A stretch of DNA of 43,725 nt, taken from IMG/VR virus record IMGVR_UViG_3300035494_000048; one strand, given 5' to 3'. The DNA is from a virus. A program made the position numbers and the translations under genes. Within the stretch, counting starts at the first letter, position 1, and each line of letters starts with the position of its first letter. This document shows, one piece after another, positions 36,767 through 39,490 of the stretch. The notes beneath the pieces are model-generated. The model was not told where the DNA came from. It saw only the letters and a list, made by a program, of their open reading frames with translations, and searched no databases.

Positions 36767-36921
36767 CCGCTCTCCAGCAGCACGCCATCCAGCTCCTGCA
36801 GCGCCAGGGCTACCAGATACGACACACAACCGCGACCGGCATAGGCCTATCCCGCGGCAATGACCATCGCGTCGTCTGTGCTGACGGAAGCACCCAGCGC
36901 GGCGTAGGAGCGAGAAAATGA
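36763..36921 (+). CDS. Hypothetical 52-aa protein
   Basis: ATGA overlaps at both ends. Below the track cutoff. Confidence 0.45.
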   Translation: MTALQQHAIQLLQRQGYQIRHTTATGIGLSRGNDHRVVCADGSTQRGVGARK

Positions 36922-37751
36922 CGGACTACATGGAAATCACCGAAGCCTTCAACCAGGCCCGCACAGCCCCCGATGTAACAGATCGCGCTACTGGCCTAGA
37001 GGAGGCAGACCGTATAGGTGGCGTGGCGCTGGTACAGGCCAGGCTGCAGGGGCAGGGCGCTGAGGTTGTGCCTGGGGCTAGGTTTGGCTGGTTAACGGTT
37101 ATTGAGCCTGCAGTGCCACACCTGCGCAGCCATTGGATATGTGAGTGTGCGTGCGGGACCAGAAAGTCTTTTCCTAAGAGCGACCTGCTTCGCGCTAAGC
37201 ACGCGACGAAGAGTTGCGGTTGTATGCGCGGTAAAAGTCACGGGATGTATAAAACTGCGACCTACCGCACGTGGGGGAGCATGCTGCAGCGGGCCACAAA
37301 CCATAGCAACGACAGGGCTGCGGACTACGTCGACAGAGGAATTACCGTCTGCGAAGAGTGGAAGGTATTCGAGAACTTTCTGCGCGACATGGGTGAGCGG
37401 CCATCCGGGAAGACGCTTGACCGAATCGACAATTCGAAAGGCTACTCACCAGAAAACTGCCGCTGGGCTACGGCCCGGGAGCAGCAGAACAACACCAGAC
37501 GCAACCGATTTCTCACCATAAATGGTGAAACCAAAACGGTAGCGGCTTGGGCTGATGAGTGTGGAATCAAGCCAGGAACGATCTACAGCCGTATTGCTCG
37601 CGGCTGGACAGGGCAGGATCTGCTACTGGCAGGCACGCGCGCGGGGTTCCGTAGGGTGAAATCGTCGCACCCCGACGCTCGCCGCAAGGCCTATCCGTCG
37701 GCGGTGTGCTGCGTTGAGTGCCAGAGCCTGCGCGAAGGGAGGGCCCAATGA
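36918..37751 (+). CDS. HNH-related / DNA-binding phage protein
   Basis: 277 aa. YRTWGSMLQRATN...YVDRGITVCEEW..FENFLRDMGERPSGKTLDRIDNSKGYSPENCRWATAREQQNN.R....ING pattern is common in phage HNH-like proteins. Confidence 0.6.
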   Translation: MTDYMEITEAFNQARTAPDVTDRATGLEEADRIGGVALVQARLQGQGAEVVPGARFGWLTVIEPAVPHLRSHWICECACGTRKSFPKSDLLRAKHATKSCGCMRGKSHGMYKTATYRTWGSMLQRATNHSNDRAADYVDRGITVCEEWKVFENFLRDMGERPSGKTLDRIDNSKGYSPENCRWATAREQQNNTRRNRFLTINGETKTVAAWADECGIKPGTIYSRIARGWTGQDLLLAGTRAGFRRVKSSHPDARRKAYPSAVCCVECQSLREGRAQ

Positions 37752-38596
37752 ATGAGCTTCATCTATTCGCGGGCGCTGGTGGAGGAATTCTCGCAGGCCA
37801 ATTGCTCGGGCACCGATGTGTCTGCGCTGTTGAGTTCGAGCCCTACGCACAAGCCGTGCTTGTGGCACGACAAAACGACGGGACTTTCCCCACTTTCCCG
37901 ATTTGGGATGACGTGCGCACCTTTGACGGAAAGCCATGGCGCGGCCTTGTTGACGTGGTTTGTGGCGGATTCCCGTGTCAGGACATATCAGCTGCCGGGA
38001 ATGGTGCCGGCATCGATGGCGAGCGCTCAGGCCTCTGGCGAGAAATGGCCAGAATCGTCAGTGAGGTACGACCCAAGTACGTCTTCGTGGAGAACTCACC
38101 ACTGCTTGTGGGAAGAGGACTTGCCATGGTCCTCGGTGACCTTGCCGAGCTGGGGTATGACGCGCAGTGGTTTCGTCTATCAGCATCCGATTGCGGAGCG
38201 CCCCATCAGCGAGACCGCCTCTGGCTTGTGGCAAACGCCGGTGGCAGACGACTCGGTAAGCCGACCCAAGGGGAAATGGAACAGTCGTGGCGAGCCAAAG
38301 CTATCAGCGCAGGTTCTGCTTCGGAAGAGTTGGCCGACTCCTGTCGCATCGATGAGCAAGGGAAGCAGTCCCGCCAGCCTGACGCGCAAGTCCGGAGCGG
38401 ATCGCAGCAACGATCGACTGGACCATGCAGTCATGGCTTCGGACGGTGGCCAGCTGAACCCGGATTGGGTCGAGTGGTTGATGGGATGGCCAATCGGTCA
38501 CACCGACTTAAAGCCATTGGCAACGGGCAGGTATCGCGAGTGGCTGCAGCAGCATTCTCCATGCTTGCCGAGCAGGGAGGCCGCGTAAATGGCTAA
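37748..38596 (+). CDS. dcm: DNA (cytosine-5)-methyltransferase
   Basis: Motifs in order: I LFAGAGGG, IV GGFPCQDIS, VI YVFVENSP, VIII APHQRDRLWLV, X RLKAIGNGQV. ATG 37748 overlaps the upstream TGA (ATGA). Confidence 0.85.
   Translation: MNELHLFAGAGGGILAGQLLGHRCVCAVEFEPYAQAVLVARQNDGTFPTFPIWDDVRTFDGKPWRGLVDVVCGGFPCQDISAAGNGAGIDGERSGLWREMARIVSEVRPKYVFVENSPLLVGRGLAMVLGDLAELGYDAQWFRLSASDCGAPHQRDRLWLVANAGGRRLGKPTQGEMEQSWRAKAISAGSASEELADSCRIDEQGKQSRQPDAQVRSGSQQRSTGPCSHGFGRWPAEPGLGRVVDGMANRSHRLKAIGNGQVSRVAAAAFSMLAEQGGRVNG
37752..38588 (+). CDS. Full-length +1-frame ORF overlapping dcm (278 codons); candidate overprinted gene or frame shadow
   Basis: Open for all 278 codons. ATG abuts the upstream TGA and the TAA abuts the ninB ATG. 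Contains DPSTSSWRT, WGMTRSG, LWQTPVADD, WPTPVAS and LNPDWVEWLMGWPIGHTDL strings that I recall from annotated phage proteins. Confidence 0.35.
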   Translation: MSFIYSRALVEEFSQANCSGTDVSALLSSSPTHKPCLWHDKTTGLSPLSRFGMTCAPLTESHGAALLTWFVADSRVRTYQLPGMVPASMASAQASGEKWPESSVRYDPSTSSWRTHHCLWEEDLPWSSVTLPSWGMTRSGFVYQHPIAERPISETASGLWQTPVADDSVSRPKGKWNSRGEPKLSAQVLLRKSWPTPVASMSKGSSPASLTRKSGADRSNDRLDHAVMASDGGQLNPDWVEWLMGWPIGHTDLKPLATGRYREWLQQHSPCLPSREAA

Positions 38597-38993
38597 CCCA
38601 ACCTTCCCCCTACGCAATGAGATGGACCGCCAGCGCGCCATCGCCTGCCTGCAGAAGATCGACCTGGGCGCCGGCTACGTCTGGACCATGCGCGAGGAGG
38701 TCCGCAGCGACGCTCAGAACCGCCGCATGTGGGCCATGTTGCGTGACATCAGCCGCCAGGTTGAGTGGTACGGCCAGAAGCTCGAGGACACCGACTGGAA
38801 GCACGTATTCAGCGCGGCCGTCGAGCAGCAGCGCGCCGTGCCCGGCCTGAATGGTGGCTTCGTGGTCCTTGGCATCTCCACCCGCAAGCAGAGCAAGAAG
38901 TGGTTCTCGGACATGTTCGAGGTGATGGAAGCGTTCGCGGCTGAGCATGGCGTGCGCTTCACCACGGCTGACCATTGGGGGATTGCCGCATGA
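38589..38993 (+). CDS. ninB: NinB/Orf-family recombination protein
   Basis: 134 aa. RSDAQNRRMWAMLRDISRQVEWYGQKL...DWKHVF matches the NinB pattern. Confidence 0.75.
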   Translation: MANPTFPLRNEMDRQRAIACLQKIDLGAGYVWTMREEVRSDAQNRRMWAMLRDISRQVEWYGQKLEDTDWKHVFSAAVEQQRAVPGLNGGFVVLGISTRKQSKKWFSDMFEVMEAFAAEHGVRFTTADHWGIAA

Positions 38994-39490
38994 GCATGTC
39001 CGGACACCAATCACCCGTCATGGGCACCGATGAATGGCTGACACCGCCGGAGATCCTGGCTGTGCTGGGCTCGTTCGACCTTGATCCGTGCTCGCCGCAC
39101 GAGTCTCGCCGACCATGGCCGACCGCGGCCAAGCACTACTGCAAGGAAGACGATGGCCTGTCGCAAGAGTGGCACGGCCGCGTCTGGATGAACCCGCCGT
39201 TTGGCCGCGAGGCAACGAAGTGGATGCGCAAGCTGGCAGCCCACGGCAATGGCATTGCGCTGATACCGGCGCGCACCGAGACGGCCATGTTCTTCGAGTC
39301 GGTATGGGGCGCTGCTGATGCCGTCCTGTTCCTGCAAGGCCGCCCGCACTTCCACCGCGTAGACGGCAGCCGTGCGGCGTTCAACTCCGGCGCACCGATC
39401 TGCCTCGTTGCCTACGGCCTGGCAAACGTCGCCGCCCTGGAGCGCTCTGGTCTCGGTCAACTGGTCCCGGTACTGCGGAGGGCCGCCTGA
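38990..39490 (+). CDS. dam: DNA N6-adenine methyltransferase (phage Dam type)
   Basis: 166 aa from ATG 38990 (ATGA coupling). DEWLTPPEIL...FDLDPC...VWMNPPFG (NPPF catalytic motif). Confidence 0.8.
   Translation: MSMSGHQSPVMGTDEWLTPPEILAVLGSFDLDPCSPHESRRPWPTAAKHYCKEDDGLSQEWHGRVWMNPPFGREATKWMRKLAAHGNGIALIPARTETAMFFESVWGAADAVLFLQGRPHFHRVDGSRAAFNSGAPICLVAYGLANVAALERSGLGQLVPVLRRAA

Follow-up and report, generated by a model that had tools for sequence, protein, structure and literature searches.

The locus at positions 37748-38596 of the viral DNA studied here (IMG/VR record IMGVR_UViG_3300035494_000048, 43,725 nt, the whole of which we call the window) is open in two frames of one strand, and it probably encodes a DNA cytosine-5 (C5) methyltransferase of two polypeptides, similar to M.EcoHK31I, whose chains are read from co-extensive frames of the same DNA. 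Dual coding of the locus far beyond chance is confirmed, and the comparative evidence for it is decisive. Across homologous loci, purifying selection runs along the first frame (A), then along the +1 frame (B), then along A again, with both frames open from end to end, and the feature set of a C5-methyltransferase is complete only when frames A and B are combined.

We propose that frame A encodes an alpha chain that would form the large catalytic, S-adenosylmethionine (AdoMet) domain, with motifs I-VIII, an unconstrained linker and motif X, and that frame B encodes a beta chain with an unconstrained leader of ~100 residues followed by the variable/target-recognition region (with WxTP/WPTP repeats) and motif IX; the selected part of beta would be the small DNA-recognition domain. 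One Shine-Dalgarno (SD) sequence would serve two start codons 4 nt apart (NTGAATG), often overlapping an upstream stop, and because a single SD serves the twin start, both chains would be made from one initiation site and then assemble into the active enzyme. Two translated products would account for all features of the locus: frame A would be kept open through the linker because alpha must reach motif X, and frame B would be kept open at its 5' end because the recognition region is reached only by reading beta from its start. The division into domains follows that of M.HhaI, in which motifs I-VIII and X make up the large domain and the recognition region with motif IX makes up the small one; by this layout, frame A would supply the large domain plus a filler linker, and the small domain would come from the selected part of frame B. 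In C5-methyltransferases it is the small domain that makes sequence-specific contacts with DNA (PMC3404938). Sequence comparison leads us to expect that beta is translated and starts at the twin ATG, that the two chains bind each other in a complex able to methylate DNA, and that specificity is determined by the WxTP region. The two open reading frames (ORFs) and their segments are as follows, with dN/dS denoting the ratio of nonsynonymous to synonymous substitution rates.

37748-38596, plus strand: frame A ORF, proposed alpha chain, 282 aa; large catalytic domain, neutral linker and motif X
37748-38233, plus strand: alpha residues 1-162, motifs I, IV, VI and VIII; PF00145 at E 1e-33, M.HhaI residues 15-170 at E 8e-18; dN/dS of A 0.08-0.36
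38234-38455, plus strand: alpha residues 163-236, linker; neutral (dN/dS of A 0.91-1.03), yet free of stops
38456-38593, plus strand: alpha residues 237-282, EPGLGRVVDG...RLKAIGNGQVSRVAAAAF, with motif X; dN/dS of A 0.24-0.38; aligns with E. coli Dcm motif X
37752-38588, plus strand, +1 frame: frame B ORF, proposed beta chain, 278 aa; full-length ORF kept in homologues
37752-38051, plus strand: beta residues 1-100, leader; dN/dS of B 0.63-0.91, intervals including 1; kept open
38052-38219, plus strand: beta residues 101-156 (STSSWRT, WGMTRSG); mild constraint in both frames, B 0.52-0.54 (upper interval below 1) and A 0.20-0.36
38220-38444, plus strand: beta residues 157-231, variable/target-recognition region; frame B selected, dN/dS 0.2-0.35 against ~1.0 for A
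38223-38240 and 38331-38351, plus strand: GLWQTP and WPTPVAS, respectively, within the beta variable region
38454-38507, plus strand: LNPDWVEWLMGWPIGHTD, beta motif IX as assigned by pattern and position; dN/dS of B 0.25
38508-38588, plus strand: beta tail (LKPLATGRYREWLQQH...) and stop TAA at 38586-38588; dN/dS of B 0.8-1.0 past residue ~262

An initial annotation of this DNA had given frame A the span 37748-38596 with motifs I, IV, VI, VIII and X in order, and had described frame B as free of stops over 37752-38588 and as fitting exactly between its neighbours. These descriptions are accurate: every motif could be located, both frames lack stops while the third (+2) frame has 14, the ATG of frame B comes directly after the TGA of the upstream ORF, and the TAA of frame B abuts the ATG of ninB (NinB, PF05772) at 38589. 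The same annotation put the longest other +1 ORF at 174 aa, in agreement with our count, since the other genuine genes of the window contain 3-33 stops in +1, with a longest open run of ~175 codons, and none has a co-extensive +1 ORF. It also proposed shuffling synonymous codons of frame A and asking whether +1 stays open in homologues, and the results of both checks favour dual coding. Synonymous shuffles of the window gene produce 4.0 +1 stops on average, and an open +1 frame is rare among them (0 stops in 0.5% of shuffles); E. coli K-12 dcm, for its part, has 14 stops in +1.

To survey homologues we used 80 loci from IMG/VR whose products are related to frame A (45-71% identity, GC 0.46-0.66), which comprise 62 distinct sequences, and a sample of bacterial genomes, one per species, that yielded at least 457 loci, 80 of which were fetched. 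No internal +1 stop occurs in 56 of the 62 distinct viral loci, whose +2 frame has 9-26 stops; shuffles that keep the codon usage of each locus lead one to expect 2.5-9.5 stops in +1, the probability of none being at most 0.035 and mostly below 0.005. In at least 63 of the 80 bacterial-genome loci the two frames are co-extensive, motifs I, IV and X lying in A and IX in B, and the bacteria that carry the pair belong to the Gamma-, Beta- and Alphaproteobacteria, Desulfobacterota, Campylobacterota, Verrucomicrobiota, Planctomycetota, Cyanobacteria, Chloroflexota and Patescibacteria. Viral and genome homologues together span GC 0.46-0.68 and have 6-30 stops in the third frame. Three annotated phages (Salmonella phage S9-5, Acinetobacter phage ABMM1 and Pseudomonas phage phPA-G) show the same double openness; at a GC of 0.50, ABMM1 has no +1 stops and 28 +2 stops. 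Frames A and B were never uncoupled in the loci examined. That the arrangement is a single-chain gene broken by a sequencing-error frameshift can be rejected, the same two full-length frames being present in well over 100 independent loci.

Given the frame A protein, frame B over motifs I-VIII would be expected to contain ~2.8 stops per locus and to be stop-free in 1.4 loci, and it is stop-free in 50 of 50; given the frame B protein, frame A over the variable region would be expected to contain ~3.4 stops per locus and to be stop-free in 3.3 loci, and it is stop-free in 48 of 50. Silent sites able to create such stops number ~6.9 and ~6.5 per locus in these two passenger segments, and the average pair of loci should differ by ~4 stop-creating silent changes in each segment, of which none was observed, so the openness of the passengers is not mere inertia. 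Codons 2-52 of frame B are likewise free of stops in 95 of 95 canonical loci, when ~62 would be expected. Stops are actively avoided in the passenger segments.

Which of the two frames is under selection was assessed by an OLGenie-style site-class analysis of 50 distinct loci (349 pairs at 72-97% nucleotide identity), both by segment and in 25-codon windows with bootstrap. The segments gave the following values.

Motifs I-VIII: dN/dS 0.19 for A and 0.70 for B; the wobble position is the third base of A
Variable region, B residues 157-231: dN/dS 0.88 for A and 0.35 for B; the wobble position is the third base of B
LNPxWVEWLMGWPxGWT, B residues 232-253: dN/dS 0.72 for A and 0.25 for B; the wobble position is the third base of B
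Motif X: dN/dS 0.26 for A and 0.81 for B; the wobble position is the third base of A

By 25-codon windows, frame B is not distinguishable from neutral over its residues 1-100 and is under mild constraint over residues 101-165 (~0.53, upper bound below 1); over B residues 161-245, frame A lies at 0.91-1.03 and is neutral, with the variable region itself saturated at silent sites (some windows NaN); and over B residues 241-265 both frames stand at 0.24. Because the middle of frame A is neutral and the C-terminal half of frame B is selected, frame A does not amount to a complete enzyme carrying a passenger, and frame B is more than a shadow. The silent-site constraint that the initial annotation proposed seeking in frame A is present, and the motif pairs that it listed as counterparts in the two frames are exact frame images, but its view of frame A as a complete C5-methyltransferase is not correct: motif IX and the recognition region are missing, residues ~163-236 are neutral (0.9-1.0) and homology ends at ~162-180. 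It had offered a choice between an overprinted gene pair and a widely annotated family that is a frame shadow of dcm. Dual coding is real, as the former requires, but B is not an unrelated gene, its selected residues (~157-253) being the recognition region and motif IX. Of the frame B strings that were suspected to be shadows, DPSTSSWRT and LPSWGMTRSG do fall in the A-dominated part, but SGLWQTPVADD, SWPTPVAS and LNPDWVEWLMGWPIGHTD fall where B is selected.

Silent divergence also varies along the gene. In frame A it is 0.26-0.49 in the first ~65 codons (37752-37950) and 0.76-0.98 further along motifs I-VIII (38000-38240); in frame B it exceeds 1.2 in the variable region, far above that of the first ~65 codons of frame A. 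Possible causes are a constraint from shared initiation, weak selection acting on the leader of beta, or replacement of the 3' half by recombination.

Frame A has the marks of a DNA cytosine-5 methyltransferase, namely motifs I (FAGAGGG, 37766-37786, residues 7-13), IV (GGFPCQDIS, 37964-37990, residues 73-81), VI (FVENSP, 38084-38101, residues 113-118) and VIII (QRDRLWLVA, 38207-38233, residues 154-162) in order, and motif X (GNGQV, 38519-38533) at the C-terminus, the last of which is under selection and is kept in at least 90% of loci. Its similarity to M.HhaI (E 8e-18) extends over residues 4-162, and likeness to both M.HhaI and Pfam PF00145 runs out at residue ~162-180, at motif VIII. Neither motif IX nor a conserved target-recognition region was found between VIII and X in frame A, where residues 163-236 are unconserved. 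Among solved structures, the prophage methylase 3g7u matches frame A in sequence over the catalytic half only (residues 2-162), which does not establish membership of the same family, and 3lx6, a Foldseek match, fell below the sequence threshold in the search with frame A. An AlphaFold2 model of a metagenomic relative, P0171, superposes on M.HhaI/M.HaeIII with a root-mean-square deviation (RMSD) of 2.3 A over 168 columns; structural confirmation, which comes by way of this predicted relative and not from the window protein, covers the catalytic domain only.

What frame A lacks can be recognised in frame B by comparison with relatives that encode the whole enzyme in one frame. In Mycobacterium phage mcgavigan, a single frame of 438 aa contains motifs I-VIII, three LLPTPxAxD repeats, FPEWMMGWPAGWVT and then IIGNGVCPQQA; in the single chain P0171, MNELHLFAGAGGG...RKRIWILA is followed by WPTPT, LNPDWVEWLMGWPIGWT, ~35 residues and RLKAIGNGQVP. 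The order in natural single chains is therefore catalytic motifs, xPTP repeats, EW(L/M)MGWPxGW and GNG(V/Q), and by collinearity with mcgavigan and P0171 the GLWQTP, WPTPVAS and LNPDWVEWLMGWPIGHTD of frame B stand where the single chains have the variable/target-recognition region and motif IX. The last of these is the best-conserved stretch of frame B across homologues. Frame B QLNPDWVEWLMGW aligns with E. coli Dcm motif IX (RLTPRECARLMGF) and frame A KAIGNGQVSRVAAAAFSML with E. coli Dcm motif X, both as short pattern matches whose scores are not significant. In P0171 (L093 1348-2310), motif IX (LNPDWVEWLMGWPIGWT) and the segment preceding motif X (PRVGTNIPDRAKRLKAIGNGQVP) are sequential rather than overlapping. 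The +1 frame of P0171 is open from a twin ATG for exactly the first 160 codons, at a GC of 0.49, and is closed beyond; this open leader either marks P0171 as a recent descendant of a dual-coded gene or hints at a separate function for the leader ORF.

Sequences around the start codons suggest how both frames could be translated.

37734-37743, plus strand: Shine-Dalgarno-like GAAGGGAGGG, core GGAGG at 37738-37742
37748-37754, plus strand: twin start ATGAATG, with the frame A ATG at 37748, the TGA of the upstream ORF at 37749-37751 and the frame B ATG at 37752

The GGAGG core lies 5 nt ahead of the frame A start and 9 nt ahead of the frame B start, and an SD-like tetramer occurs at -6 to -16 of the start pair in 48 of 50 homologous loci. 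The upstream ORF (36918-37751) terminates on the TGA within ATGAATG, so that the frame A ATG overlaps this stop and the frame B ATG abuts it; in 31 of the 50 loci the embedded TGA is the stop of an upstream ORF at least 50 codons long. The twin-start context NTGAATGAG is present in 50 of the 62 viral loci and in most of the 80 bacterial-genome loci. Across the 50 loci the frame A initiator differs (ATG in 33, GTG in 15 and TTG in 2) and the frame B ATG is invariant. At the other end, TAAATG or TAAGTG is found at the frame B stop in 18 of the 50 loci (an ATG or GTG follows a stop codon of any type in 22), and the frame A stop usually lies 5-17 nt downstream of that of frame B.

Several other accounts of the locus have to be weighed against a two-chain enzyme launched from the twin ATG. 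The gene is GC-rich (0.60), the first 100 residues of B are without amino-acid constraint, and much of the conservation there is imposed by A, as might be expected if B were a non-functional shadow, with only A expressed and the openness owed to composition, codon usage or shared ancestry. However, frame B is open even at GC 0.46-0.50, where +2 has 20-28 stops; shuffles preserving the codon usage of each locus reject the idea; the stop-creating silent changes that it predicts are absent; and in the recognition region wobble moves to the third base of frame B, with dN/dS of 0.2-0.35 for B and ~1 for A. We consider a shadow hardly tenable. Purifying selection on the C-terminal half of frame B would also be seen if B were a classical overprinted gene, translated and functional as an independent protein (a regulator, an anti-defence factor or a DNA-binding protein), and the want of a Pfam family and the partly 'unknown function' labels of PHROGs agree with this. 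But the selected part of B is collinear with the VIII-to-X region of single-chain enzymes of the same family, it has the motif IX pattern missing from frame A, frame A itself lacks a conserved recognition region, and the pair was never uncoupled in the loci examined; moreover, de novo overprinting should have a restricted phylogenetic range, and this pair spans many phyla. An independent protein is thus very improbable.

The order of selected segments (A, B, A) is that of the canonical motifs, which raises the question of whether a single polypeptide could be produced by programmed ribosomal frameshifting, +1 from A to B after motif VIII, and either ending there or returning by -1 before motif X. 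In its favour, there are natural fused ORFs that join the N-terminal part of A to the C-terminal part of B (P0138, P0139), as well as the full single chain P0171. Frameshifting leaves unexplained, however, why frame B is open and has an ATG start over the 156 codons upstream of the junction and why frame A is open through the linker; there is neither a 0-frame stop nor a recognisable slippery site at 38225-38240; a shift from B to A at GHTD/RLKAIGNG would leave ~10 residues from the motif IX proline to GN, compared with 17-21 in Dcm, Upyo and mcgavigan; and those fused ORFs that were examined derive from indels and leave a motif X segment orphaned. We view this mechanism as quite improbable. 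If, instead, two polypeptides are made but beta starts at an internal Met (e.g., M53 or M136), the 5' openness would serve harmless run-through or the tuning of alpha translation. The beta chain of M.EcoHK31I is internal and tolerates alternative internal starts (PMC2836561), distant families begin B at codons ~29-61, the leader is unconstrained, and an automated call by JGI is a 143-aa version starting at M136. The invariant ATG at +5 beside a variable frame A initiator, the SD spacing, and the stop-free B codons 2-52 in 95 of 95 loci all favour the twin ATG, and we regard an internal start as unlikely.

The two-chain enzyme with a twin start is itself open to objections, which we bring together here. 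Homologous loci share ancestry, so the per-locus probabilities from shuffling are not independent, and the recognition region has probably been exchanged by recombination, inflating its divergence. The argument for translation of frame B is an evolutionary one. A beta leader of ~100 residues without amino-acid constraint is an odd cost, and the twin-ATG start of beta could be wrong, given that distant families and M.EcoHK31I start beta internally; no other reading, however, accounts for the openness of frame B at its 5' end. Motif IX is assigned from a short pattern and its position, with no significant score, and Pfam detects no motif IX in frame B. Searches of the Protein Data Bank (PDB) by phmmer with the frame B half and by hmmsearch with its 80-sequence profile returned chance matches or none. 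AlphaFold2 gave no confident model of frame B (mean pLDDT, the predicted local distance difference test, 57.7), and Foldseek found no match to it in the PDB; in the model of P0171 the catalytic domain and the motif X helix are resolved but the recognition region is not (pLDDT ~35). Lastly, fused A-N/B-C ORFs lacking motif X are present in some Pseudomonas genomes.

Some of these negative results reflect the tools. Frame B matches no Pfam family, and with chimeras joining A-B-A or A-B, with the C-half of frame B and with the C-half of frame A, the PF00145 match never passes motif VIII; Pfam also misses gp53 of Gordonia phage Upyo despite its GNGVVPQQA and is too insensitive for motifs IX and X here. 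Beta residues 1-100 are modelled at a pLDDT of ~40, where the alignment lacks depth, and the structural position of the WPTP/motif IX segment could not be shown from the P0171 model.

In Pseudomonas chlororaphis and P. aeruginosa (L094 1501-2260 and L096 1501-2300), the catalytic half of frame A is fused in frame to the recognition half of frame B, and the orphaned 'linker + GNGQV' segment lies in the third frame; these fused ORFs are indel derivatives. P0154 is also without most of motif VIII, and P0143 (P. kribbensis) begins with MSWLFSQ of frame B and then switches to frame A. Such ORFs could be prophage genes in decay or could represent a third mode of dividing the enzyme. A-type and fused proteins were told apart by motif scanning, as BLASTP coverage cannot separate them.

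Other relatives divide the enzyme differently. In Upyo (genes 54/53) and Mycobacterium phage ByChance (63/64) the parts are consecutive genes in different frames, one with motifs I-VIII and the next with the repeats, IX and X, so that layouts differ between close relatives among actinophages, with one chain in mcgavigan (L089 1063-2379) and two genes in ByChance (L088 1063-2143) and Upyo (L086 921-2190). The +1 frame of mcgavigan contains an additional well-formed unit, LLPTPRATDGTKGGPNQRGSAGDLMLPSAV, upstream of the in-frame repeats, which suggests that the frame has changed repeatedly in this region of the actinophage relatives. A nested +1 ORF with the same motifs is found in the more distant Paenibacillus phage Leyra (gp61/gp62), E. 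coli phage Ivi, cyanophage S-H1 and phage C72C1, and these distant families start frame B at codons ~29-61. Both Leyra proteins (L085 642-1679 and 826-1530) are annotated as methyltransferases. Frame B matches 48 Paenibacillus larvae phage records, and in many of those listed a pair of nested coding sequences (CDSs) in different frames carries the label DNA (cytosine) methyltransferase on both members; a comparative paper on these phages gives both CDSs and leaves the nesting uncommented (PMC6070908).

Among characterised enzymes, the closest in architecture is M.EcoHK31I, whose beta chain Lee, Kam and Shaw are said to have described in 1995 as 176 aa nested in a 309-aa alpha. This heterodimeric C5-methyltransferase (YGGCCR) requires both chains, and the whole coding sequence of its beta lies within the alpha gene in a different frame; the N-terminal region of beta is important for association, and the recognition domain is predicted to be in alpha (PMC2836561, PMC3404938). 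We liken the two by described architecture and motifs and not by sequence. In both, a second chain lies in another frame, frame B of the window being within frame A, in +1, and conserved across homologues; in both, motifs I-VIII and X belong to alpha and IX to beta, although in the window IX is assigned by pattern and position only; and the association role of the M.EcoHK31I beta N-terminus parallels the mild constraint on residues 101-156 of the window beta. The two differ in that the M.EcoHK31I beta is internal whereas that of the window is co-extensive with alpha, starting 4 nt downstream; in that the recognition domain of M.EcoHK31I is predicted in alpha whereas the variable region of the window gene is selected in beta and the middle of alpha is neutral; and in that the window gene is a phage/prophage gene with no adjacent restriction enzyme seen.

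M.AquI (CYCGRG) is a two-subunit C5-methyltransferase with motifs I-VIII in alpha and IX-X in beta, encoded by consecutive genes (PMC3404938). Like the window locus it is a natural C5-methyltransferase split within the variable region into two polypeptides, but in its layout it resembles Upyo 54/53 and ByChance 63/64, whereas in the window motif X returns to the first frame and the ORFs overlap fully. The monomeric M.HhaI, M.HaeIII and E. coli Dcm (PF00145) share motifs I, IV, VI, VIII and X and the large-domain fold; unlike the window gene they have all motifs and the recognition domain in one frame, with +1 closed (E. coli dcm). In phage lambda, the short Rz1 is embedded in Rz on the same strand in +1, and the two products form one functional complex. 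The window locus is comparable as a same-strand +1 embedded gene of a lambdoid phage whose product would work with that of its host gene, but Rz and Rz1 are unrelated in fold and origin, whereas the frames of the window locus would be two domains of an otherwise single enzyme and overlap over their whole length.

The window encodes a Dam-family N6-adenine methyltransferase (38975-39490; PF05869, E 1e-10) two genes downstream, the start of which overlaps the end of ninB by 19 nt, so a C5 and an N6 methyltransferase would both lie in the nin region of this phage; Salmonella phage S9-5 instead has an adenine methylase directly upstream of the dual-coded gene.

Because gene callers forbid long same-strand overlaps, only one frame or fragments of the pair are annotated, and the dual-coded locus is systematically mis-annotated in phages and prophages. 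On a sister contig of the window, the JGI calls include only the last 143 codons of frame B (window 38157-38588, L091 4001-4432; P0001, 'hypothetical protein'), leave frame A uncalled as a 400-nt gap, and retain just the last 84 codons of the upstream 277-codon ORF. In Pseudomonas phage VB_PaD_phPA-G (L003 1501-2233) the deposited CDS is frame B, again a 'hypothetical protein', and the methyltransferase frame is unannotated; motif X of its frame A reads IRNGQV, not IGNGQV, and the frame B tail PLEMDKFREW is well conserved. There are at least 471 clusters of frame B fragments without a Pfam domain, and separate PHROGs families for them. The window frame B matches five PHROG families, two labelled DNA methyltransferase (phrog_1008, phrog_31772) and three of unknown function (phrog_27243, phrog_26627, phrog_35493), and all five appear to be built from frame B ORFs or fragments.

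The nested-frame split is known from M.EcoHK31I, and what is new is best read as the co-extensive layout, shown here to be widespread. The arrangement was not found described in the literature on overlapping genes, phage methyltransferases and Paenibacillus phages, coverage of which was partial and gives weak evidence of novelty. More tentatively, and with rather less confidence than doubt, we suggest that these loci form an unrecognised class spanning phyla of phage and prophage hosts, in which the recognition subunit always lies in +1 across the whole catalytic gene, is launched by the twin start and is produced in a fixed ratio. If so, several PHROG families and hundreds of entries annotated as 'hypothetical protein' would represent parts of a single enzyme, and few of the fully overlapping same-strand gene pairs known from double-stranded DNA phages would be as long or as widely conserved as this one.

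Recognising the pair would merge the frame B fragment clusters and PHROG families into one enzyme. Frame A alone is predicted to be without a DNA-recognition domain, and a silently recoded or codon-optimised 'dcm' clone would lose beta and probably activity or specificity. The locus offers a clean natural case for models of overlapping genes, in that the selected frame switches from A to B to A with both ORFs open for ~280 codons, and it is of use in studying the route from a single-chain enzyme to a dual-coded heterodimer. Orphan methyltransferases give phages protection from restriction by the host. If the two-chain model is true, the recognition cassette could diverge or be exchanged with no effect on catalysis, thanks to the neutral alpha linker, and a swappable recognition subunit would bear on how the specificity of phage methyltransferases diversifies.

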